NCBI GenBank assembly: GCA_036479435.1
Contig: JAZGFI010000116.1
Span: 1 to 45,667, forward strand
Length of the DNA: 45,667 nucleotides
Direction of reading: 5' to 3'
From: Planctomycetota bacterium
Lineage (GTDB): Bacteria; Planctomycetota; GCA-002687715; DRQF01
Shown: one piece after another, positions 9,257 to 21,423 of the stretch
Layout of the letters: every line of letters starts with the position of its first letter
How positions within the stretch are numbered: the first letter of the stretch is position 1
The notes under the pieces: generated by a model
Seen by the model: the letters and a program-made list of their open reading frames with translations, nothing else
Told to the model about the DNA's origin: nothing
Database searches by the model: none
Made by a program: the position numbers and the translations under genes

Positions 9257-10318
9257 ATGACAGACAATAAGAAATCGTCGGCCGGACCCGACCTCGCTCG
9301 CCTCGGCGAATTGAAAACCAAGTACGAAGCGGTACGAACCGAGATTGCCAAAGTCATCCTCGGGCAAGACGAAGTCGTAGAGCAGCTGCTCATCTCGATT
9401 TTCGCCAGTGGCCACTGTATTTTGGAAGGCGTGCCCGGCTTGGCCAAGACCTTATTGGTCAGCACGCTGGCGAAGACGATGTCTTTGGATTTCACTCGAA
9501 TTCAGTTCACGCCCGACCTGATGCCTTCGGACATCACCGGGACGGAAGTGATGTTCGAAGACAAAGTCTCGGGCAGCCGTGAATTTAAGTTCATCAAGGG
9601 CCCAATCTTCAACAACGTCGTGCTGGCGGACGAAATCAACCGCACGCCTCCTAAGACGCAAGCGGCCCTGTTGGAGGGGATGCAGGAACGACAGGTGTCG
9701 GCGTCCGGACAGCGCTACGAGCTACCGAAGCCTTTTTTCGTGTTGGCGACCCAAAACCCGATTGAGCAAGAGGGGACCTATCCTCTGCCCGAAGCGCAGA
9801 TGGACCGCTTTTTGTTCAAAGTCGTCGTGGACTACCCAGACCGGGCCGTTGAGCGCGAGGTCTACCGCACGACCACGAGCCAGACTCCCGAAGAGCCTGA
9901 GATCGTTGTCGGCGCCGAGGATATTCTCGAGATGCAGGAGCTTGTCCGCCGGATCGCCATCAACGATACGGTGATCGACTACGCGCTCAATCTCGTTCGC
10001 GGGACGCGCCCCAATGAACCGGACGCCCCGCAGTTTGTGAAAGACTGGGTGCTCATCGGAGCCGGGCCCCGCGGCGGCCAAGCTTTGCTTATTGGCGCGA
10101 AGACGCGCGCGGCCCTCCAGGGGCGGCCCGAGGCGACGATCGACGATTTGCGTGCCTTGGTGAAGCCCGTTCTACGCCACCGCATTATCTTGAACTACAG
10201 CGCCGAAGCCGACGGGCAGAGCCCTGATTCGATGATCGATCGCCTGCTTGACTCGGTTCCCGTCCATTCGTCACCGGAGAACATGGATGAGCGCGTCCAG
10301 CAAGTACTCGAGTCCTGA
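9257..10318 (+). CDS. moxR: MoxR family AAA+ ATPase
   Basis: Walker A EGVPGLAKT, RIQFTPDLMPSDITG, Walker B LADEINR, and ATQNPIEQEGTYPLPEAQMDRF. Confidence 0.97.
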   Translation: MTDNKKSSAGPDLARLGELKTKYEAVRTEIAKVILGQDEVVEQLLISIFASGHCILEGVPGLAKTLLVSTLAKTMSLDFTRIQFTPDLMPSDITGTEVMFEDKVSGSREFKFIKGPIFNNVVLADEINRTPPKTQAALLEGMQERQVSASGQRYELPKPFFVLATQNPIEQEGTYPLPEAQMDRFLFKVVVDYPDRAVEREVYRTTTSQTPEEPEIVVGAEDILEMQELVRRIAINDTVIDYALNLVRGTRPNEPDAPQFVKDWVLIGAGPRGGQALLIGAKTRAALQGRPEATIDDLRALVKPVLRHRIILNYSAEADGQSPDSMIDRLLDSVPVHSSPENMDERVQQVLES

Positions 10319-11267
10319 AGTCCTCGCGCGGATCAGGAGCCTCGAGCTACGTGCCAAGCACGCGGTGCAAGGAACGCTCAGCGGGGCCAATCGCAGTCCC
10401 TTGCTCGGGCAAAGCGTCGAGTTCGTGGACTACCGCGAGTATGCGCCGGGGGATGACCCTAAACGTCTAGACTGGCGGGTGTACTCGCGTAGCAACCGTT
10501 GGTTCGTAAAACTCTACGAAGAAGAGAGCAACTTTCGCTCGACCTTCATTCTCGACGCTAGCGCCTCGATGAAGTACCAGGGTGAAAAATCTGCGTGGTC
10601 GAAGTACGAGTACGCGGCAACTCTCATCGCGTCGATGGCGACGCTCGCAATTGAACAGCGCGACGCGGCAGGTCTTTGGATTTGTGACGAGACCCGAAGA
10701 GAGGCCTTGCCGCCCAAGGCGTCTCGGCTGCAACTGATGAAGCTCATCGACGGGCTCGAGCGATCCGCTCCCGATCGCAAAACGGAATTGGGTTTTGTCT
10801 TGAATCAGGCTGCGGCCGAGTTGCCTCGCCGTGGCTTGATCTTCATTGTCTCGGATTTTCTGACGGATCTTGACTCTTTGTACAAGAGTCTCGGTCACCT
10901 ACAGAGTCGAGCGCACGACATCGTCTTGATGCATGTTCTCGATCGCGATGAGATCAGTTTGCCATTCAAAGACCAGATCGAGTTTCTCGATATCGAAGGT
11001 GAGGATCGAATCATGGCCGAGCCTCGCTATTTCGCGAGCGCCTACGGCGAGGCGATGGAGAAGTTTTGTCGGGAGGTGGAAGGCCGAGCCGGCGACTTCG
11101 GAGCCGACTACTTGTTGATCCCAAGCGACGATGATTTGGGGCGGTCTTTGGCCTACTACCTTCATCGGCGCAAGCGCATCTCGGCCAAGGCGTCGCGGCG
11201 CGGTGGCAACACTCCGGTAACCGGCGGCGGCGTGGCCCGCGTCTTTGGGCGGGGCAGGGCCCAATGA
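10287..11267 (+). CDS. DUF58 domain protein (VWA-like MoxR partner)
   Basis: GQSVEFVDYREYAPGDDPKRLDWR, VKLYEEE, ILDASASM, IVSDF. Follows moxR. Confidence 0.95.
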   Translation: MSASSKYSSPEVLARIRSLELRAKHAVQGTLSGANRSPLLGQSVEFVDYREYAPGDDPKRLDWRVYSRSNRWFVKLYEEESNFRSTFILDASASMKYQGEKSAWSKYEYAATLIASMATLAIEQRDAAGLWICDETRREALPPKASRLQLMKLIDGLERSAPDRKTELGFVLNQAAAELPRRGLIFIVSDFLTDLDSLYKSLGHLQSRAHDIVLMHVLDRDEISLPFKDQIEFLDIEGEDRIMAEPRYFASAYGEAMEKFCREVEGRAGDFGADYLLIPSDDDLGRSLAYYLHRRKRISAKASRRGGNTPVTGGGVARVFGRGRAQ

Positions 11268-13399
11268 GCTTCCTCGCTCCAGCCCTCCTTGGCGGCCTTG
11301 GACTTCTTAGTGTGCCGATCATCATCCACATCTTGAATCGACGGAAATTCCGCGTCGTCGAGTGGGCGCCGATGAAGTATCTGCGCTTGACAGTGAAAAC
11401 GACGCGACGCCGGATTCGCTTGGAGCAGCTCCTGTTGCTTTTGGTCCGCCTTCTTTTCGTGGCGGCACTAATCTTTGCCTTAGCTCGACCGGTGGTGCAG
11501 CGTTCCGGAGCACTTTCCTGGGCGGGCCTCGGGGCTAAGACTTCTCGCATCTTGGTGCTCGACGACTCCTTGAGCATGGGTTCACGGCTTGGCAACGATT
11601 CCAGCTGGCAGCTTTTGCAGTCCGCGGCCCAAAAACTCATTGGATCGATGCCCGAGCAAGACGGCCTAACTCTGATATTGGCTTCGCAGCCCAGCGCTCC
11701 GCTTCTCAGTTCGGCTGCCGTGGGCGAAGTTGAAAATGCCGCCCAACTCGTTGAGGACCTTGAGCTCGGCGACGCCAGCGTTAGTTGGGCCGGAGTTTTC
11801 GAGGCCTTGCAGCGTCTCGTCGAGGGTACGACATACCCCGTCGTTGAGATCACGATTCTCACAGACCTGCGGCGTACCGGGTGGGGCCCGGATGTCGAAG
11901 CGATCGCCCGCGCCATGGCCGCGAAATCACTGAACCTTAGAATCATCGATTTGGGTCTGGCGCCGCGCGGCAACATCGCCCTCATTGGCTTTGATGTGGT
12001 CACGCGGGTTTGTGTGCCGGAAGTCGACGTCTATTTCTCGGCCACCATTCGCAACGATGGCTCGGAGCCCTTTGGTCCGATTGCTGCCGAACTTCTAGTC
12101 GATGATGCGAAGCGCAGTGTTTCGATCCCCCGTATCGCCGCCGGCGAGACGGTAGTGGTGGAGTTGGCGCATCGATTTCGCAAGCCCGGTTTGAAAACCG
12201 TTGCTTTACAGCTACCCGCCGATGATCTACCCGGCGACAACCGCCGCCAACTCGTGGTGCACCTGCGCGAGTCCTTGGACTTATTGCTGGTCGATGGCCA
12301 ACCGTCGGACGAGCCCTTTGAGAGTGAGGTCGATTTTTTGAGTGTGGCCTACACCGTTGGCGATGTGCCCTGGAGAGTGTACGCCGCGACCGATGCGGAG
12401 TGGCTGTCGAATTTGCCGTCCGCCGTCGACCTCACCGTTCTGGCAAACCTAGGTAATCTCACGCCCGAGCACGTATCCGCGCTTGAGGATTTAGTGCGGG
12501 ATGGAATGGGGCTCATGATCTTCCCCGGTGAAGAGAGCGACCTCAGTCTCTACAACACCCTGTTGTGGCGCGAGGGAGAGGGTTTGTTGCCCGCTCGTCT
12601 AACCGGCATACGAGAAGAGGCCGTCGAAGGTATGGCCGTTGAACCCGTCGAGCATTCTCCTTTGCAGGCCATTGCCAAACTCGCGCCGGAAGCCTTGGCC
12701 TCTATCGGTGCCAAACGTTTCTTAGAAGTTGCCATTCCTGCCGCCAGCGACGAAGTGCGCGTGTTGTCCCGCTGGGACGATCAAGACCGCAGCCCGGCGG
12801 CAATCGAACGGCGTTTCGGGAAGGGCCGTGTGATCTTGTGGACGACGACGGCCGACCGTGATTGGACCGATTGGCCGATCGATCCCAGCTTCATCTTGAC
12901 GATGCGGGAGGCGGGATTGGCCACGGCACGGCAGGGCCTTCCCGGCCTCAATTGGGAGGCGGGACAGACGATTCAGATCGATACGAACTCGCGCAGCGTC
13001 GATGACCCTCGGGTCGCGTTGCCTTGGGCGAAGGAGCCCGCCAGATTGTCGTTAGTGAACAAAGATCCGCTGGCCGCGGCGGGCTCCCAGCGTCTTTCCT
13101 ACGCGGCGACGCAGCGGGCAGGAATCTATCGGGCGGAATGGACCGATGAATCCGGAACGCGCATTCAACGGCCCTTGGCGGTTAGCCCGGCCGCGAGCGA
13201 AAGCGATCTGAGGCCGGTGGCGCGAACGGACTTGCTCACTTGGCTGGGAAGTCTCAGCCCCCAATTCGTTCACCATTCTGAAGTCGATGACTTGGTCAAA
13301 GGAGCTGGCCGTGAGATCTGGAGAATCCTCATTGGGTTGACACTCGCATTCCTCGCTCTTGAATCCGGCCTGATGGTCTGGGTGGGAAGAAAGGGGTGA
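11264..13399 (+). CDS. BatA N-terminal / VWA / CARDB-like / GATase1-like membrane protein
   Basis: MSFLAP...PIIIHILNRRKFRVVEWAPMKYL (BatA-type N-terminus), MIDAS-like LDDSLSM, LPADDLPGDN, and a C-terminal TM segment EIWRILIGLTLAFLALES. Confidence 0.88.
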   Translation: MSFLAPALLGGLGLLSVPIIIHILNRRKFRVVEWAPMKYLRLTVKTTRRRIRLEQLLLLLVRLLFVAALIFALARPVVQRSGALSWAGLGAKTSRILVLDDSLSMGSRLGNDSSWQLLQSAAQKLIGSMPEQDGLTLILASQPSAPLLSSAAVGEVENAAQLVEDLELGDASVSWAGVFEALQRLVEGTTYPVVEITILTDLRRTGWGPDVEAIARAMAAKSLNLRIIDLGLAPRGNIALIGFDVVTRVCVPEVDVYFSATIRNDGSEPFGPIAAELLVDDAKRSVSIPRIAAGETVVVELAHRFRKPGLKTVALQLPADDLPGDNRRQLVVHLRESLDLLLVDGQPSDEPFESEVDFLSVAYTVGDVPWRVYAATDAEWLSNLPSAVDLTVLANLGNLTPEHVSALEDLVRDGMGLMIFPGEESDLSLYNTLLWREGEGLLPARLTGIREEAVEGMAVEPVEHSPLQAIAKLAPEALASIGAKRFLEVAIPAASDEVRVLSRWDDQDRSPAAIERRFGKGRVILWTTTADRDWTDWPIDPSFILTMREAGLATARQGLPGLNWEAGQTIQIDTNSRSVDDPRVALPWAKEPARLSLVNKDPLAAAGSQRLSYAATQRAGIYRAEWTDESGTRIQRPLAVSPAASESDLRPVARTDLLTWLGSLSPQFVHHSEVDDLVKGAGREIWRILIGLTLAFLALESGLMVWVGRKG

Positions 13400-13406
13400 T
13401 GCGGTT

Positions 13407-15821
13407 ATGACCCGTCTTTTTGGAAAGCTCTTTGGCTTCGAGTTAGGTGACGGAAGCAGCGATGCGACTTGGCGCGTTGACTGGACCGGTGCTCCGGATG
13501 GCGGCGACGGTGTCTTGTTGGTCATGGTGCTCGTTGGTCTGATCGGCTGGGGAGTGTGGTGGCTATACCGCCGCGATGGCGTGGCTTTGACTCGCCGCCA
13601 GCGGTGGGGCCTCACGGCCCTGCGGACCACAGCCATCGTCTTGGTGTTGATGATGTTCCTCGAACCGGTTTTGGTGAGCGAACGCGAGACCCAGAAGCCC
13701 TCCAAGCTGCTCATCCTTCGCGACGTGTCTGCGAGTATGGATATCGAGGACGGCCTCGAAGACCCCGAGAGCGCTCGAGCGATCGCGGCGGCTCTGGGGC
13801 TTACGAAACCCGAAGCCATCGGTGACAAGAGCCGCCAAGACTTGGTCGATATTGCGCTGAGCGGAGGGCTTGAGCGGGCGCTCGAGAGAGACGGAGACCG
13901 ACAGGTTCAGGTCCACGAGTTTGCAGACCGGTTCTTTTTGGAGCCGGAGACCGACCCCGAATTATCTCGTGCCGCGCGTGATTACACGGCGATCGGGTCT
14001 TCCCTCGAACAAGCCCTTGCGGCCTACCACGGACAGGGCCTCGCCGGGATCTTGTTGATCTCAGACGGCCAATCCAACGCCGGCCCACTTCCGGCTCGTA
14101 GCGCTGAACTTGCAGCAGCGCTCGGCGTTCCCGTTCACGTCTTGGGTGTGGGTGGAAGCAAAGAGGCGCGAAACGCGGCCATCACGAAGGTCGACAGCAA
14201 CGAAGTCACCTTCGTGAAGGACAAGATTCAGATCAAGGTGTACGTCGACGCGCGAGGCATGCCTTCCGAGTCTGCCACTGTTGCTTTGGAGCGGAGTGTC
14301 GACGGCGGCGCTTGGGAGCCTTTACAGAATCAAGAGATCATCTTTGATGAAGCCGGGAAGTTGAGCGAGTTGTCGTTTGAGAGTTCCCTCGACCGACCGG
14401 GTGAGATCCACTTTCGAGCCCGGCTCGAAGACTTGGGCCCCGAAATTACCACCGAAGACAACAGTGCGAGTTCCAAGACCAGAGTTGTTAAGCGCAAGAT
14501 GCGGGTGCTCTTGGTCGCGGGGCTGGCGTTCCCCGAAGTTCAGTTTTTGATCAACACTTTGATGCGGGACCAAAGCATCGAGGTCTCGAGCTGGTTGATG
14601 TTTGCCGAATCTGCCTACAAGCAAAAAGGCAACAAGATCATCACCCGCCTGCCCCAATCCGAAGATGAGCTCGACGAGTACGACTGCGTGGTGCTTTACG
14701 ACACCGACTTGCGCCAGATGCCCGCGAACTTCGGTCGGATGCTGAATGAGTTCGTCGGAAAGAGCGGGGGCGGCTTGGTGTTTATCGCCGGTGAGTCATC
14801 GACGGCAGACTTGTTTGACCGCAAGCACTCGGGGTCCGACGAGATCACGGCCATCCTGCCGGTGGTGCGTGAACCCGGGGTGTTTCAAACTCGCATCGAG
14901 ATGCGGCTTTCAGCGCAGAGCGAATGGAAGTTGGAATTGACGAGGGCCGGAGCGCGCGATTCTTTGTTTCGCTTCGATGACGACCCGGAACGCAGCCGAG
15001 AGATCATGCGCGCCTTGCCGGGGATGTATTGGTATTTTCCGGTCACCCGCGAGAAGCCCGGTGCGACGGTCCTGGCGCGACACGGTGACGCTCGCATGAG
15101 CAACCAGTACGGTCGTCACGTTGTGATCGCGACACAGCTCTATGGTCCGGGGCGCACATATTTTCTGGGTTTGGACAGCACTTTTCGTTGGCGATTTCTG
15201 CGCGAGGCACACTACGACCAGTTTTGGGCTCGCTTGGTGAATGACGCTGGACTAGCCAAGCGACTCGGGGGCCGGCAGCCTTTCACGGTTGCTACGGATC
15301 GCGCGTCCTACGCTCCGGGAAGTGTCGTGACCTTGCAGGCGACTTTTCGCGATATCGACGATCTCGATGTGGGCCGAACGACGATTGTGGGCGAGATCGA
15401 AAGTGGCGACGAAGGCGGTGAATCTTTGTTGTTCTCCGCTGTTCCGGGCGTTCCCGGTAGGTTTGAAGCACAGTATCAGGTGCGGACAAGCGGCCCGCAT
15501 TTTGTGCGCGCCTGGGCTTCCGAAGCACCTCAAGATGGGGCCAAACCGGTGACCTATGAATTTCGGGTCGAGTTTCCGAATCGGGAGCTCGCGGCACCAT
15601 CGCAAGACCGAACCCAACTGGCGGCGATTGCGGCGGCTACGCAAGGCCGTGTCTTTAATCTCGCCGAGATCGACGAGATTCCCGATGCCTTTGCAATCGG
15701 GAAGATCTCGCGCCGGCAGCAAGAGCGGCAAGAGCTTTGGGATGCGCCGATCTTGTTCGCCTTGGCGCTGCTCTTGATCTTCATCGAGTGGTTCCTGCGC
15801 AAGCGATACCGACTGGTGTGA
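13407..15821 (+). CDS. VWA plus GATase1-like (DUF1355-type) membrane protein
   Basis: Two N-terminal TM segments, MIDAS DVSASM and LLISDGQSN, YGPGRT...STFRWRF, and C-terminal TM ...EWFLRKRYRLV. Confidence 0.85.
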   Translation: MTRLFGKLFGFELGDGSSDATWRVDWTGAPDGGDGVLLVMVLVGLIGWGVWWLYRRDGVALTRRQRWGLTALRTTAIVLVLMMFLEPVLVSERETQKPSKLLILRDVSASMDIEDGLEDPESARAIAAALGLTKPEAIGDKSRQDLVDIALSGGLERALERDGDRQVQVHEFADRFFLEPETDPELSRAARDYTAIGSSLEQALAAYHGQGLAGILLISDGQSNAGPLPARSAELAAALGVPVHVLGVGGSKEARNAAITKVDSNEVTFVKDKIQIKVYVDARGMPSESATVALERSVDGGAWEPLQNQEIIFDEAGKLSELSFESSLDRPGEIHFRARLEDLGPEITTEDNSASSKTRVVKRKMRVLLVAGLAFPEVQFLINTLMRDQSIEVSSWLMFAESAYKQKGNKIITRLPQSEDELDEYDCVVLYDTDLRQMPANFGRMLNEFVGKSGGGLVFIAGESSTADLFDRKHSGSDEITAILPVVREPGVFQTRIEMRLSAQSEWKLELTRAGARDSLFRFDDDPERSREIMRALPGMYWYFPVTREKPGATVLARHGDARMSNQYGRHVVIATQLYGPGRTYFLGLDSTFRWRFLREAHYDQFWARLVNDAGLAKRLGGRQPFTVATDRASYAPGSVVTLQATFRDIDDLDVGRTTIVGEIESGDEGGESLLFSAVPGVPGRFEAQYQVRTSGPHFVRAWASEAPQDGAKPVTYEFRVEFPNRELAAPSQDRTQLAAIAAATQGRVFNLAEIDEIPDAFAIGKISRRQQERQELWDAPILFALALLLIFIEWFLRKRYRLV

Positions 15822-15825
15822 GACG

Positions 15826-18009
15826 ATGACCAACAAAGACACAATCGTTCCCCAGGAATCAGCTGGATCGGCATTGCCGCCGGACCTCTTCAGCGACCGC
15901 CTTCGGCGCTTTTCCGCGCGCGTGCGGCGGCTGTTGGCCTTGCGTGGATTGCTGATATTTCTGGCTTGGGCCTTGGCCCTGGCCCTTTTGACTTTCGCCT
16001 TGGACCGCGTTCTTCGCTTGTCGCTCACCGCGCGGACGATCGTGGGACTAGGGGCGATCGCTTGGCTGGTCTGGATTACCTGGAAGGAGTGCTGGCGACC
16101 GCTGGTCGGAAACTGGAGTGGCCTCGACGTCGCCGCATCGCTGGATCGATTGGGGACGGAGTCAAGGGCGCGTACCTTCATCGTGCAGCGCCTTGCAACG
16201 AGTACGCAGCTCGGCGCAGAACTCGATGCACGCAGCAAGACCAGGCCTCACGACGACAGACAATCGCTCGAGTTCATGCGCGAGGCCGTGGCCAAAAGCC
16301 GTCAAGAACTCAACGAGTACGACCTCGATCAACACATCGACTCTCCGCTATTGCGGCGCCGGGTGACCTTGTTGGCCGCGTTAATAGCGCTGCCGCTCCT
16401 CTTGATTTTTGTTGCGCCGGATTCGACCTCGCTTTGGTTCAAGCGCTGGTTTTTGGGGTCTGAAGAACGCTGGCCTCAAGAGACTTACTTGGAGTTGTTG
16501 GGGACGGAGGACGGGGAGATGATTGTCGCACGCTCTGAAGCCGTGGAGTTCAGGGTGCGTGCGAGAAAAGGTAGTGTCGTTCCCGACCGTATTGAGATCG
16601 ACTACGAGTTAGACGGCGGGCCCAGGATTTCGAACAGCCTGACCAGATTCGGGCCCAACGACTTTCGTTTTCAGCTGCCGGGAGTTCGCGACCGAGCCCT
16701 CGTGTGGTTGGTGGGCGGCGACGACCGGGCGGGGCCCTTCACTCTCATCGCCAAGGATCGCCCTCGCGTTGAGAGTTTTAGCGTCCACGCGCAACTAAAA
16801 GCGGCAGGTTCGTCTGAGAAATTCGAGTTTGCGCGCCAGGATGAGTCCATCGCGTTCCGAAAAGACAGCAAGGTCACTTTGCGGGTGCGAGCCAGCGAAG
16901 AGATCGCGGCTTTGGATTTGCGGCAAGAACAAGCCGAGGGAGTGGTGGTTGAAGAACTCTCCGCCTTCGAGCGCAAGTTGTCGTGGAGCCATCTTAGACG
17001 GCGCAATCTAAGCATCGAGTTGGTGAGCCGCGCGACCGGGTTGCGGTCGCGCCCCACAAGTCTCGACTTCGGACTCAAAGAGGACTCGGCTCCTCGGATC
17101 ACTGTAGCGGTTGAAGGCGTCCGAGATCGCATTACCCCGCGTGCTCTCGTCCCCTTGACCGTCGTCGCGCAAGACGACTATGGGCTTTCTGACTTGACGC
17201 TTCATTGGTCGTCGTCGGTCAGTCCGGAGGCCGGCGAGGGAGCCGCAGCGAAGAGTGCTGTGTTATTCAATGCTCCCGATGGTGGCGTCGAGCGTTCAGT
17301 TGAAGAGAAGAAAGAGCTGGATTTGGCCTTGGCATCGTCGTCGGCGTTGAAGCTGGAGCCAGGGACTTTCCTGCGCGTCGAAGCGACGGCAAAAGACCGT
17401 TGCCACTTGGGGCCTCAGACCGGAAAGTCGCGTTTGCGTGTGTTCCGCATTGTGTCTCCCGAACAGTTGTTTCGAGAGATCGCTCTGCGACTGCAGCGGA
17501 CGCGGAGCCGCTTTCGGAAGTCGCGGGATCGCGCCAAAAAGCTGCAAGATGTCTTGGTGCAGGCCCAGTCCGAGTCGAAGGCTTTGGTGGACCCCGCGGA
17601 TGCGCTGCGACGCTTGCGCTTGGTCGAGCGCCAGGTTTGGTCGACCAACCGAGTCTTGGAGGCCAGCATTCGCGAACTTGTCCTGAATCGGCTGGTCGAA
17701 AAAGAAGCTGAGGAGCTTCTTGAGCGCAATGTTCTTCGCCCCCTTAGGCGCTTGCAGAATGTAGAACTCAAAAACCAGCGACGTCAGTTTGAGCGTTTTG
17801 GTTTGGCGACCGCGGATGCACCATCCATGGATGAAATGGCGACTGGGCAGGCTTTAGTCGTAAGGGGGATGCAGCGCGTGCTCGACGGCATGAAACAATG
17901 GGACAGTTTTGTGGACTTGATCAATCAGTTGAATGAAGTGATCAAGCTCCAATCTGGGGTAAGATCAGAAACCCTCGACGCCAAAGGAGAAGCGCAGAAT
18001 GGCAAGTAA
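15826..18009 (+). CDS. Membrane-anchored beta-rich plus coiled-coil protein (DUF4175-like)
   Basis: Three TM segments, AQDDYGL and ATAKD motifs typical of these operons, and a helical C-terminus. Confidence 0.7.
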   Translation: MTNKDTIVPQESAGSALPPDLFSDRLRRFSARVRRLLALRGLLIFLAWALALALLTFALDRVLRLSLTARTIVGLGAIAWLVWITWKECWRPLVGNWSGLDVAASLDRLGTESRARTFIVQRLATSTQLGAELDARSKTRPHDDRQSLEFMREAVAKSRQELNEYDLDQHIDSPLLRRRVTLLAALIALPLLLIFVAPDSTSLWFKRWFLGSEERWPQETYLELLGTEDGEMIVARSEAVEFRVRARKGSVVPDRIEIDYELDGGPRISNSLTRFGPNDFRFQLPGVRDRALVWLVGGDDRAGPFTLIAKDRPRVESFSVHAQLKAAGSSEKFEFARQDESIAFRKDSKVTLRVRASEEIAALDLRQEQAEGVVVEELSAFERKLSWSHLRRRNLSIELVSRATGLRSRPTSLDFGLKEDSAPRITVAVEGVRDRITPRALVPLTVVAQDDYGLSDLTLHWSSSVSPEAGEGAAAKSAVLFNAPDGGVERSVEEKKELDLALASSSALKLEPGTFLRVEATAKDRCHLGPQTGKSRLRVFRIVSPEQLFREIALRLQRTRSRFRKSRDRAKKLQDVLVQAQSESKALVDPADALRRLRLVERQVWSTNRVLEASIRELVLNRLVEKEAEELLERNVLRPLRRLQNVELKNQRRQFERFGLATADAPSMDEMATGQALVVRGMQRVLDGMKQWDSFVDLINQLNEVIKLQSGVRSETLDAKGEAQNGK

Positions 18010-19531
18010 GACGAAGGACAGCGTTCTCTCCATTTTCATGCCACGGGCTGGACAACATTGGATGATCGCGGCCCTTATCTTCGTGGTTTGGTCGTCGATG
18101 GGAATCGCTGCGCTGGCCCAAAACGAAGGCGGCGACTCCAAGGCAAGTGATGAGCATGAGCATGAGCGCCGACGGCAGATTGAATTCCGACAAAAAAAGG
18201 CGAAGGCGAGCATGGAAGAGCTCGAAGTTCGCATGTTTCAGCTGTCGGAGCTCATCCGAAAACTCGAACCCGATCATGCCGCTCGCCTGGTCCTTGGGCT
18301 CCAAAAATCACGTGAAGAGCTGATTGTCGACGAGATGCAGTCGATCTCGAGATTCGTCAAAGAGGGAAAGTTCGACGAAGCCGAGGAAATGCAAAGGCGG
18401 GTCATCTTTCGCCTCAACGAACTTCGGGACCTGTTGTTGTCGACCGATTTGGATTTGTTGTTGAAGCTACAACGGCTTCGAAAGCTCAACAAAGCACTTA
18501 AGAACGTCGAGAAGATCCAGTCGGAGCAAGACCGTCTGGCAAAAGCTGCCGCCGAACTTGCCAAGAAGGAAGAATTGGACGCCGCCGATAAGAAGAAACT
18601 GAAGAAGTTGGCACGGTCTCAGAAGGACAACCGCAAGCGATCCGATTTATTGCAAAGCGATCTCAACGATATCGCCGATGCGGAGATGAAGAGTCCGAAG
18701 GCCCTCAAAAACGCCTCCGAGGAGATGAAGAAGGCTGAGAAGAAACTCAAAGGTGGCGATGCCAATGAGGCCGAGGAGAAGGGCAGTCAGGCCAAGAAGA
18801 AAGTAGACGAGGCCGAAAAGGACATGTCCGAAGCGCGCAAGCGCTTACTCCAAGAGCTACAACCCTTCATCCGAAAGGCCATCATCGAGACCTTGTTGGC
18901 GATGATCGAAAAACAACAAATCATCGACGAAGAGCTGGCGCACCGCAGCGGCAAGCTGAAGGCAAAACCCGGTCGCAAACGGCGCGCCCTCAGCGACAAG
19001 GCCATGACCGACGGCGCCCGCGAAATTCAGACTCTCGCCAAGAATGCGCTGCAGCTCTTAGAGGAAACCGAGTACGCGGCGGCGCTACCTTGGGCCTTGC
19101 GCTACATTCAAGAGTGGGCCGAGCCCAACGTTGGGGCATTTATGAAGGGCTCCTTTGGGCTCGCCGAATTACGACGTGGCAAAAAGATCGAAAAAGACGC
19201 CAAAGAGCTGGTCAGCATTCTCGTCGAAGAGGATCGATTCGCGAAACAAAATGAAGACAAACCCAAGGCGCTTGAGGTCATCAAGCTCTTGGCTGAGCTG
19301 AGGACGTTGCGGCTCCTACAAGATCGGATTCACGCTGATACAACGCTGGCCGACAAAGGCCAACTCTCCGGTCTGAGCCCGGAAGAACAACAGATCCTGC
19401 GGAAAGTGCAGGGTATTCGTGATTGGGAAGTGGTGATCCAAAACATCACTAAAGAGATCGAAAAACGTGGTGGCACTGAGCACCTACGTGGCGATAATGA
19501 GGAAGGTATCGAAGATGATGAATTTTTCTAG
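17999..19531 (+). CDS. Exported or anchored long coiled-coil protein
   Basis: N-terminal hydrophobic segment, then E/K/Q-rich heptads and LLAELRTLRLLQ. Overlaps both neighbours. Confidence 0.75.
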   Translation: MASKTKDSVLSIFMPRAGQHWMIAALIFVVWSSMGIAALAQNEGGDSKASDEHEHERRRQIEFRQKKAKASMEELEVRMFQLSELIRKLEPDHAARLVLGLQKSREELIVDEMQSISRFVKEGKFDEAEEMQRRVIFRLNELRDLLLSTDLDLLLKLQRLRKLNKALKNVEKIQSEQDRLAKAAAELAKKEELDAADKKKLKKLARSQKDNRKRSDLLQSDLNDIADAEMKSPKALKNASEEMKKAEKKLKGGDANEAEEKGSQAKKKVDEAEKDMSEARKRLLQELQPFIRKAIIETLLAMIEKQQIIDEELAHRSGKLKAKPGRKRRALSDKAMTDGAREIQTLAKNALQLLEETEYAAALPWALRYIQEWAEPNVGAFMKGSFGLAELRRGKKIEKDAKELVSILVEEDRFAKQNEDKPKALEVIKLLAELRTLRLLQDRIHADTTLADKGQLSGLSPEEQQILRKVQGIRDWEVVIQNITKEIEKRGGTEHLRGDNEEGIEDDEFF

Positions 19532-20165
19532 GAGACTCGCTGTGCCGCGATTGACACTAAGTGTCGTCCTTGGTCTTTGCGCATCATTGTGGCTGGCTGG
19601 TTCAGTCTTTGCGCAACAAACCGAAGACGACTGCAACGGCCAAGACGGCTGTGATATTTGCAGCAAAGAAGTTCCGGAGCCGATGGCTCCCATCGACGAG
19701 GAAGACCCACTTGGCGATGTCGCCAAACGCATGGGAAAAGTTGCGGTCGATCTGGGCCGGGGGCAGACGGATAAAAAAGTTCAACGCAAGCAACGCGAAA
19801 TCGTCTCGCAGCTCGATACTTTGATCGAGCGCCTGCGCCGCAAGGCGGGGGGCTGAGACAGTGGGAGCTGAAATGGCTCCGGAAAAGGCCGCGGTCGCGG
19901 TCGAGGAAACGGTGGCAACAATCCCAAAAATCCCGCTAAAGAATCCGCGCTCCTAAAGGGCCCGGGTGGAGTGGGCGCTCTGCAGAAAAAGGGCAGCAAC
20001 ACGACTCAGTTCGGCGACTTGCCGCCCAAGCTGCGCGACAAGATTTTGCAAGCGCGCAAACGAGGTTTCCCCAAGGGCTACGAGAAGATCCTCGAGAGCT
20101 ACTACAAGCGACTGGCCAACAAGGCCAAAGAAGCCCGAGAATCCAAAAAGACCAAAGCAAACTAG
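19515..20165 (+). CDS. Putative secreted selenoprotein with two in-frame UGA codons (U114-DSGS-U119), 216 aa
   Basis: ORFs 19467-19856 and 19971-20165 are in the same frame and separated only by TGA at 19854 and 19869. Read-through gives RRKAGG*DSGS*NGSGKGRG...FGDLPPKLRDKILQ...FPKGYEKILESYYKRLA, ending in TAG. SECIS-like hairpins follow. Signal peptide from the ATG at 19515. Confidence 0.7.
19864..19880 (+). promoter_or_regulatory. Candidate bacterial SECIS hairpin for UGA 19854
   Basis: GGAGCU/GGCUCC 6-bp stem with loop GAAAU that starts with G. The loop begins 14 nt after the UGA, which is somewhat short. Confidence 0.4.
19887..19902 (+). promoter_or_regulatory. Candidate bacterial SECIS hairpin for UGA 19869
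   Basis: GGCCGC-GGUC-GCGGUC. The apical GGUC matches the E. coli fdhF SECIS tip, and the loop begins 22 nt after the UGA. Confidence 0.6.
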
Positions 20166-20235
20166 TCACCAAGGGCGCCAGGCACGACGCCGTCACTTTT
20201 CCGTGCCAGGCACCGTACGTTCACGAGAGCCGTTG

Positions 20236-21423
20236 ATGCGTCTAGTCTCTGTTTTTTTGTGCGCCCTGTGGTTGGGCGCACCCAGTCTCTCCGCCCAAAA
20301 AAAGATCCATTACGCCAAGGAGCTTAAGGGCTTCTTCAAGGACGTTGACGCCAACTATCCCTTCTTCAAGTCGAAGGGCATCGAGAAGGATTGGAAGAAG
20401 AGCAAGGCCTCGCTTCGCAAGCGAGCGAAGGCCTGCAAGGACGACGTCACCTTCGTGATGATCGTCAAAGAAGCGATCGACAAACTTCGCGATGGGCACG
20501 CGAGCTTTAGGGCCGTGCGTCCGAAGATGCCTCGAATCGAAGCGGAGTATTTCCCCGGCATTTCGCTGTTGCCCGCTTCTAAGGGCCGAGTTGTGGTGAT
20601 GTCGACCATCAAGGCCTTGGCCAAGGATTTCCCGCCGGGGACCCTCATTACAAAGATCAATGGTAAGGGCGCGCGAGCCTACTTGGATGCGCAATCCAAG
20701 GCGGCTTGGGATCGAGGAGGCTACTTTTCGAGCCCACAGCGGGCGCGCCTCATTGAATACCGCTTGCCATTTCGGGGCAAGCAGGGGGAGTCTTTCAAGC
20801 TTCAGTACCGAAGCAAGAACCGGACTAGAAACAAGAAGTTACGGGCTACTCGGAAAGTGGGGCCTTGGCCCAAGAACTATCATTTACCCGAGGGTTTGGT
20901 GGCCCTTGGCGATTCGATTTTCCACGTCGCCTTGTCGAAAGACCTTGGCTATTGCTGGATGACGGCCATGGGGGCCGCGGCGGAGGAGAACCTGAAAAAA
21001 GTCCAGGCGGCACACCCCAAAGTGGGGTCGTGGATTCTCGATCTGCGGGGCAACAAAGGTGGTGGTTACGCCAAGTCCATGAAGACGACGATCCGAGGTT
21101 TCGGCACATCAGTTGCGGTGATCGTCGACGCCGGGAGCATTTCGGCCGCGGAGACATTTGCGCGCGACCTCGTGGAAGTCTGCCGAGGTCGCCTCTTCGG
21201 GGCCACGACGGCGGGATCATCATCGACGAAACGAGTTTTCGAATTCCCCTCTAAGGTTGCGTCCGTGCGCTACTCGGTGGGAGCCCGCCGCGGCCTCAAA
21301 GGAAAGCCAATTGAGTTCTTCGGAATCCTATCCCACGAACGACTAGAAGCGGATCCCGAAGACTTGGCCGCAGGCCGTAACACCGAGATCGAAGCCGCTA
21401 AGAAGTGGCTCCGATCAAAATGA
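20236..21423 (+). CDS. S41 family peptidase, exported
   Basis: Signal peptide from the ATG at 20236, YPFF..KGI..DW, LRDGHA, ILDLRGNKGG, and SISAAETF. Confidence 0.88.
   Translation: MRLVSVFLCALWLGAPSLSAQKKIHYAKELKGFFKDVDANYPFFKSKGIEKDWKKSKASLRKRAKACKDDVTFVMIVKEAIDKLRDGHASFRAVRPKMPRIEAEYFPGISLLPASKGRVVVMSTIKALAKDFPPGTLITKINGKGARAYLDAQSKAAWDRGGYFSSPQRARLIEYRLPFRGKQGESFKLQYRSKNRTRNKKLRATRKVGPWPKNYHLPEGLVALGDSIFHVALSKDLGYCWMTAMGAAAEENLKKVQAAHPKVGSWILDLRGNKGGGYAKSMKTTIRGFGTSVAVIVDAGSISAAETFARDLVEVCRGRLFGATTAGSSSTKRVFEFPSKVASVRYSVGARRGLKGKPIEFFGILSHERLEADPEDLAAGRNTEIEAAKKWLRSK

Follow-up and report, generated by a model that had tools for sequence, protein, structure and literature searches.

Selenocysteine (Sec) is decoded in bacteria at UGA codons by SelB bound to a hairpin located just downstream of the UGA. 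The consensus for this bacterial Sec insertion sequence (bSECIS), as given in the available passages of PMC13188914, has a loop of 3-9 nt with G in its initial two positions followed by G or U, a stem of 4-16 bp, a spacing of 16-37 nt and an energy of -7.5 kcal/mol or lower. Table 1 of the same source lists TsoB (NF045694), a rhodanese/DsbD fusion-like selenoprotein, with the motif UxxxxU and two Sec residues. For the Bat operons of Bacteroides, a role in reducing damaged proteins of the periplasm or in exporting reducing power has been proposed (PMC3557215, in the passages available). The stretch of DNA analyzed here (the window) comprises 45,667 nt from a Planctomycetota bacterium (GenBank assembly GCA_036479435.1, contig JAZGFI010000116.1, positions 1 to 45,667 of the forward strand) and carries a gene at 19515-20165 whose frame is interrupted by two TGA codons. 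On the comparative evidence presented below, this is very probably a single gene decoded with Sec, specifying an exported selenoprotein of 216 residues with Sec at positions 114 and 119. A preliminary description, made from the sequence alone, had proposed an exported two-Sec protein of this length that gene callers miss; the analysis adds the decoding machinery, homologues, a hairpin and a signature of selection to that proposal. As far as the loci compared indicate, the protein is a member of a large family without a name, whose gene comes last in the MoxR/DUF58/BatA-type operons of Planctomycetota.

Reading frame, sequence reliability and selenocysteine machinery

Between ATG 19515 and TAG 20163-20165 the frame contains exactly two internal stops, TGA 19854-19856 and TGA 19869-19871, which lie 15 nt apart within the motif G-G-U-D-S-G-S-U-N-G-S-G; both the frame and its translation are as first described. 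The ATG overlaps the 3' end of the upstream open reading frame (ORF; 17999-19531) by 17 nt, an arrangement common within operons. No Met is encoded 3' of residue 119 and the sole in-frame start in the ORF listing is GTG 19971 (ORF 19971-20165, 64 aa), in agreement with the earlier statement that the downstream half lacks an in-frame ATG and has this GTG as its only candidate start. Inspection of the sequence ahead of GTG 19971 revealed no evident ribosome-binding site.

The genome is a draft of 299 contigs, and both TGAs might be ascribed to assembly or sequencing error. This explanation is exceedingly improbable: contigs from the runs of three studies span 19400-20300 with 0 differences (depths of 17, 77 and 8), the contig of a fourth run covers 19823-19973, including both TGAs, again with 0 differences, and relatives carry the same feature. 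Two of the four runs are possibly the source of the assembly, so it is the other two that carry independent weight. At both codons the independent contigs read TGA and not TGC, TGG or GGA. Where the next gene region begins, the contig of one run (depth 5) carries an additional T after 20251, probably a strain difference or an error. Directly 3' of the stop codon, at 20174-20215, lies an intergenic repeat of ~40 nt that resembles repetitive extragenic palindromes; it has 38 matches in the genome including itself, often in facing pairs, and in the mapped sequencing runs it is visible as a peak in depth with numerous short contig ends.

The four Sec genes named in the preliminary description, namely selA, selB, selD and tRNA-Sec, were all found in the genome. 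The tRNA-Sec gene, with 67 bits (gathering score 47), is called as SeC(tca) by ARAGORN, while selA (526 bits), selB (357 bits, both parts) and selD (372 bits) all score above the curated cut-offs. The genes for tRNA-Sec, selD and selA lie side by side on one contig (C117:33648-36236). The selD gene itself carries one in-frame TGA, at the usual S-S-G-G-U-A-A-K site, and a hairpin with the apical loop GGUCU is located 32 nt 3' of this UGA. Judged by this gene content, the organism is able to make selenoproteins.

Translation might also pass the UGAs by some other route, with UGA read as Gly or Trp throughout the organism or with a near-cognate tRNA inserting Cys, Trp or Arg. Gly would suit the Gly-rich context, and the inserted residue cannot be named from sequence alone. 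However, TGA is the ordinary stop of 11 of the 22 long ORFs in the window, and it also terminates the orthologue in a genome of the same taxonomic family (G003); the organism therefore does not generally read UGA as an amino acid, and its organism-wide use for Gly or Trp was rejected. In relatives the position aligns with Cys, which is the customary counterpart of Sec, and the genome contains the full Sec machinery together with a SECIS-type hairpin at this locus. Read-through without Sec is thus very improbable.

Homologues and the Cys/Sec site

An exhaustive phmmer search of 1.84 billion representative proteins returned 1305 matches at E <= 1e-3, 193 of them at E <= 1e-10. Nearly all are single ORFs in which one aligned stretch covers query residues ~50-205, across both TGAs, and the homologues are either 170-260 aa long or 340-400 aa with an N-terminal extension. 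A word-indexed homologue search at similar length had given no match and is superseded by the phmmer result.

Standard ORF calling would split the locus into two small genes, a secreted protein of 113 residues that ends at TGA 19854 and a protein of 64 residues that starts at GTG 19971, and pieces of this kind are present in the public protein collection. They include a protein of 57 aa that is identical to residues 57-113, a relative of 101 aa whose match stops at query residue 113, which is its own last residue, and C-terminal-third pieces of 65-76 aa. Such entries are what gene callers would be expected to yield on stopping at Sec codons. An arrangement of two genuine genes is nevertheless highly improbable: the homologues are overwhelmingly single ORFs across the junction and the GTG has no evident ribosome-binding site. 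Moreover, Ser144, Gly149, Pro150 and Gly152 are invariant in an alignment of 40 sequences and are encoded between the second TGA and GTG 19971; lying ahead of that start, they are made only if translation passes the TGAs and would go untranslated in a two-gene arrangement.

The ratio of nonsynonymous to synonymous substitutions (dN/dS) was obtained by a codon comparison of the three closest orthologues, from the genome of this window (G000), from G003 and from a genome of the same order (G021). After the UGAs it is ~0.28 (G000-G003), 0.26 (G000-G021) and 0.54 (G003-G021), and before them 0.48, 0.27 and 0.88, respectively; these values are rough because synonymous changes approach saturation. 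Constraint downstream of the TGAs is no weaker than upstream of them (0.28 versus 0.48 in the closest pair), and on this comparison the downstream half is not decaying, which answers the possibility of decay raised at the outset. A decaying pseudogene would have acquired two nonsense mutations in a Gly-rich stretch, where GGA becomes TGA in one step, and would leave its downstream half untranslated. The TGAs do lie in a low-complexity Gly/Ser region, and in one relative (G399) the TGA falls inside a run of Gly codons. Against this, an in-frame TGA is also present at this site in 20 other genomes from many genera, the downstream dN/dS is no worse than that of the upstream half, a SECIS-type hairpin follows and selA accompanies the internal TGA in nearly every genome (see below). 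We consider a pseudogene very unlikely.

In a MAFFT alignment of 145 family members, the column directly after the conserved helix (L-D-x-L-I-E-x-L-E-K-x) is Cys in 61 rows and the next motif column is Cys in 38, including the query itself, in which U was stored as C. Many rows have C, CxxC or CxxCxxC at this place and many others have none. Searching genomes with stops read through revealed TGAs at the site in both of the closest relatives: G003 (56% identical) has K-K-R-U-E-G-G-S-U-S-G-S-G with two TGAs and G021 (50%) has G-G-U-D-G-S-G-U-D-G-D-G-A-U with three. A family profile run against 401 genomes of the phylum detected the family in 195 genomes at E <= 1e-5. Among the 150 matches listed (189 further matches stand outside this set), 56 were flagged with TGA, which is merely the terminal stop in 36 and is internal in 20. 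These 20 matches represent 20 genomes, including this one, and their TGA lies within a few residues of the helix end. With G012, which was found only by a single-protein search and has C-U at the site, at least 20 other Planctomycetota genomes carry an internal TGA here. Full-length relatives thus form single genes in which the site has Cys or, in other genomes, again TGA, the pattern that the preliminary description had put forward as support for a selenoprotein.

The spacing of Sec and Cys residues varies among these genomes. U-x4-U also occurs in G340 (U-SGGG-U), U-x4-C in G336 and G270, U-x3-C in G128, U-x4-C-x2-C in G339, U-x6-C-x2-C in G122 and U-x5-U in G378, and a single U is found in G134, G087, G399, G042 and G305. 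Five genomes of one genus (L086-L090, L118) share C-P-D-C-G-K-G-G-U-S-G-C, where TGA takes the place of the third Cys, which hints at a four-ligand metal site with one selenolate. Some members have CxxCxGxG twice at this site, for example CPDCKGGGCKKCGG in G040 (L022); similar sequences occur in G354 (L097) and G213 (L098). On one contig of G270 (C131:11480-13029) two family genes are arranged in tandem, one with G-G-U-S-G-D-G-C and the other with neither Cys nor TGA at the site.

At E <= 1e-30, selA is present in 20 of the 21 genomes with an internal TGA, including this one, compared with 290 of the 401 genomes in the sample; the internal-TGA genome without it is G340, which is only 67% complete. 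This co-occurrence was used as a consistency check, with no statistic attached, because the relatives are not independent. By the same count, use of Sec looks very common in Planctomycetota.

The SECIS-type hairpin

A hairpin 3' of the UGA had been expected but not located in the preliminary description; a SECIS-type hairpin is found at 19887-19902. Its stem has 6 bp and its loop follows the second UGA by 21 nt and the first by 36 nt, so that both UGAs satisfy the bSECIS criteria, as published in the available passages of PMC13188914, with this one hairpin. A smaller hairpin at 19864-19880 was rejected as the SECIS of the first UGA: its loop begins 12 nt after that codon and lacks the G-G/U loop start.

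Comparable hairpins follow the last UGA in several relatives. Loops of the type G-GUU-C on stems of 7-8 bp occur in G003 (22 nt after the UGA), G021 (28 nt), G305 (22 nt) and G378 (25 nt); in G042 the loop is GGUC and the distance 21 nt. In G336, where only the first position is U and the second is Cys, a GGUC hairpin is located 39 nt after the UGA, which suggests that a far spacing would be workable for the first codon. The hairpins overlie different peptides (R-G-R-G, R-G-S-R-P, Q-G-G-R-P, S-S-G-S-E and L-A-G-S-A), each centred on a GGU Gly codon. In an ungapped alignment the GGUC-loop and G-GUU-C types fall in different registers, with the hairpins in non-homologous codons. G003 and G021 differ in one stem pair, C-G against U-A, through two synonymous changes.

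The distribution of such hairpins follows that of TGA. With duplicate loci of the same gene and partial matches (e.g. L113, L117 and L027) excluded, GGU-loop hairpins of at least 5 bp are found no further than 165 nt from the helix end in 9 of 18 TGA rows, 2 of 14 Cys-only rows and 1 of 48 rows with neither. At 6 bp or more, seven are present among the TGA rows; 300 codon shuffles gave 0.83 on average and never more than 4. When the stricter consensus criteria were applied, a fitting hairpin followed 13 of 27 UGAs and 20 of 434 mock positions in TGA-free relatives.

Decoding of the gene by Sec would proceed as follows. The ribosome would reach UGA 19854 and then UGA 19869, the GC-rich hairpin at 19887-19902 would recruit SelB carrying Sec-tRNA(Sec), and Sec would be inserted at both codons in place of termination; we infer that one hairpin serves the two codons, 15 nt apart. 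Limiting selenium or SelB would lead to a truncated product of 113 residues.

Predicted structure, operon context and comparison with known systems

An AlphaFold2 model based on a 40-row alignment has a mean predicted local distance difference test score (pLDDT) of 71.9 and a predicted template-modelling score of 0.37. It displays a leader helix (residues 13-29), a helical hairpin formed by residues 65-81 and 87-112 (pLDDT 93-97), a disordered stretch (residues 113-170) and two C-terminal helices (residues 171-183 and 189-215). In this layout both Sec residues fall where a flexible Gly-rich linker begins, immediately beyond helix 87-112. A Foldseek search of the PDB with the model gave no match at E <= 0.001 (best E of 3.5); consisting of two helical hairpins and a disordered linker, the fold gives no functional lead. 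Orthologues likewise open with hydrophobic leaders that end in A-x-A↓Q, where the arrow marks cleavage. The mature N-terminus contains a Cys cluster, C-N-G-Q-D-G-C-D-I-C (residues 40-50; 19632-19664), which is absent from the G003 and G021 orthologues; its Cys residues could be partners of the two Sec residues in this species only.

The gene had been described as closing a MoxR/VWA operon, and Pfam identifies MoxR, DUF58 and BatA_N/VWA proteins upstream on the same strand (Table 1). The three ORFs between these and the selenoprotein gene, which were scanned for BatB, BatC, BatD and BatE, match no Pfam or NCBIfam family significantly. A search for related loci with the protein itself found no relative, and MoxR was used instead to assess synteny. 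In named genomes the closest MoxR relatives (64-66% identity) are from Phycisphaeraceae, Phycisphaera and Phycisphaerae assemblies, on which basis the organism is taken for a Phycisphaerae-like planctomycete. The gene order recurs in 12 of 80 MoxR loci, where a family member is the last gene, on the moxR strand and 9.5-10.9 kb downstream of the start of moxR; the corresponding distance in the window is 10.3 kb, and many others of the 80 end sooner or belong to other phyla. Upstream of its selenoprotein gene, G021 has an orthologue of the 510-aa ORF of the window (34% identity, E of 1e-49), and the same upstream protein was recognized by eye at the G003 locus.

Table 1. Coordinates of the gene, its elements and the preceding operon genes in the window
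Feature	Position	Strand	Remarks
Whole gene	19515-20165	+	216 codons including two Sec UGAs (predicted); stop TAG 20163-20165
Shine-Dalgarno-like AGGAAGG	19500-19506	+	8 nt ahead of ATG; read from sequence
Predicted signal peptide, residues 1-33	19515-19613	+	Predicted cleavage ...SVFA↓QQ; sequence and model helix 13-29
Conserved helical hairpin, residues 65-112	19707-19850	+	pLDDT 93-97; ends in L-D-x-L-I-E-x-L anchor
First putative Sec codon (UGA), residue 114	19854-19856	+	Aligns with Cys or TGA of relatives
Small hairpin GGAGC-UGAAAUG-GCUCC	19864-19880	+	Second UGA in loop; kept in G003 with the same Ser codons
Second putative Sec codon (UGA), residue 119	19869-19871	+	From sequence
SECIS-type hairpin GGCCGC-GGUC-GCGGUC	19887-19902	+	Loop 19893-19896; -10.4 kcal/mol alone
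Family motif NP-x-x-P-x3-S-x4-GPGG, residues 137-152	19923-19970	+	Ser144, Gly149, Pro150, Gly152 invariant
C-terminal two-helix domain, residues 171-215	20025-20159	+	Motif L-P-P...R...F-P-x-G-Y-E...Y-Y-x-R-L-A
MoxR (AAA_3)	9257-10318	+	Pfam
DUF58	10248-11267	+	Pfam
BatA_N + VWA protein	11264-13399	+	Pfam
ORF	13407-15821	+	Between BatA_N/VWA gene and selenoprotein gene
ORF	15826-18009	+	Between BatA_N/VWA gene and selenoprotein gene
ORF (510 aa)	17999-19531	+	Between BatA_N/VWA gene and selenoprotein gene

Within the last of these ORFs (17999-19531), the region 18158-18844 gives a weak match to DUF4175 (PF13779; model positions 532-746, E of 0.03, 12.7 bits), below the cut-off, and in many relatives' loci positions ~40-120 of the family profile are matched a second time, more weakly, by an upstream gene. 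A helical module may be common to the two adjoining genes, or both may derive from a single long DUF4175-like protein. For the family itself, a natural Cys homologue in the protein Atlas led only to unnamed Planctomycetota clusters and to a DUF4175 lead of 0.76; this identity was rejected, with 0 of 40 members matching PF13779 at E <= 1. Downstream, an ORF at 19966-21423 (+) matches Peptidase_S41 (E of 1.6e-12); the GTG listed as its start falls within the end of the selenoprotein gene, in a different frame.

With regard to function, we tentatively suggest that the U-x4-U loop might be a redox-active or metal-binding site and that the protein might act, as a periplasmic part of a MoxR-VWA system, on a substrate or in sensing it, a proposal that we rate at somewhat under an even chance. 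The Cys/Sec motif next to the rigid helix varies in form and in many members is absent, a pattern more in keeping with an accessory site for redox or metal binding than with a universal catalytic centre.

Several observations weigh against a Sec-decoded gene with such a site. In the scan with simple contiguous stems 14 of 27 UGAs have no fitting hairpin, among them those of the five same-genus genomes and the first two of the three UGAs of G021, which lie 61 and 46 nt from its clear hairpin. The first UGA of the window likewise has no model-fitting hairpin of its own and relies on a hairpin 36 nt away, close to the limit of the 16-37 nt allowed, and the 60-nt region folds only modestly better than shuffled sequences (z of -1.64), as expected for G+C-rich Gly codons. 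Neither Cys nor Sec is found near the helix end in 48 of 80 loci rows, so the site cannot be essential to whatever the whole family does. The Sec site lies in a predicted disordered, low-complexity linker and not in a thioredoxin-like fold, a location that weakens a catalytic redox role. Finally, bat mutants of Leptospira are reported to have no oxidative-stress phenotype, and the role of such operons is called elusive (PMC3557215, in the passages available).

A more specific proposal combines decoding and chemistry: one SECIS would decode two UGAs 15-18 nt apart (perhaps three in one relative), and the flexible U-x4-U loop, as a diselenide or a selenolate chelate, would be the working redox or metal site of the periplasmic arm of the MoxR/DUF58/BatA machines of Planctomycetota. 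We regard this combination as doubtful; if true, it would hand the long-unexplained Bat-type operons a concrete and testable chemistry. More generally, a Sec/Cys motif in the last gene of MoxR/DUF58/BatA-type operons would point to periplasmic thiol/selenol redox or metal chemistry.

The protein matches 0 families in Pfam (E <= 0.01) and NCBIfam (E <= 0.1), and a scan of 40 family members at E <= 1 found no shared Pfam family and no DnaJ-type family. The DnaJ zinc finger is a repeated CxxCxGxG motif. Some family members resemble it in holding two CxxCxGxG at the Sec/Cys site, whereas the window protein has only U-x4-U-x-G-x-G and not two CxxC pairs. A 2026 table of 119 prokaryotic selenoprotein families and subfamilies, in the part of PMC13188914 available, contains no match by Pfam, TIGRFAM or NCBIfam models, its few rows with only cd or PTHR models being compared by description, and none of the 119 is described there as a MoxR/VWA-operon protein or a Gly-rich secreted helical protein. 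The surmise of novelty in the preliminary description therefore holds within Pfam, NCBIfam and that inventory. The term 'Planctomycet' does not occur in the passages available of the deep-Sep and BSepDB papers, whose supplementary family tables could bear on novelty. S9 Table of PMC4807772, a genome paper of 2016, lists one 'hypothetical' split planctomycete selenoprotein candidate with a Cys homologue, possibly of this family.

A selenoprotein gene of an uncatalogued family is thus well supported, the features that set it apart being two or three Sec residues that apparently share one SECIS and a conserved position at the end of a Bat-type operon. It would add to the current models, and to the 2026 inventory as far as that was available, a family outside both, whose TGA form occurs in about a tenth of the family-bearing genomes sampled. 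Gene callers split such genes in two, and the proteins are consequently missing or truncated in databases.

In its operon, the locus resembles Bat operons in combining MoxR AAA_3, DUF58 and BatA_N + VWA with exported or membrane-bound components, but the last four genes match no Bat family in Pfam or NCBIfam. The literature searched on Bat operons describes no selenoprotein or Cys-motif protein, and the co-mention of 'selenoprotein' and 'MoxR' that it contains concerns an unrelated subject. In its decoding, the gene shares with bSECIS-decoded genes such as SelD and FdhA an in-frame UGA, Cys homologues, a hairpin with a G-G/U loop 16-37 nt downstream and a genome with selA, selB, selC and selD (PMC13188914, in the passages available), and its GGUC loop resembles the GGUCU loop of the genome's own selD. 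It differs from them in having two UGAs 15 nt apart with one clear hairpin and in placing Sec in a disordered Gly-rich linker of a helical secreted protein instead of a known redox fold. The closest likeness in Sec spacing, judged from its table row, is to TsoB, which has the same U-x4-U and two Sec residues; the two proteins have no sequence relationship (no NCBIfam match at E <= 0.1) and differ in domain make-up and gene neighbourhood. With TsoB and the UxxU of a few families tabulated in the same source (PMC13188914), closely spaced Sec pairs have precedent, and the present family would be among the few bacterial cases in which two or three Sec residues lie a few residues apart and apparently depend on one insertion hairpin.

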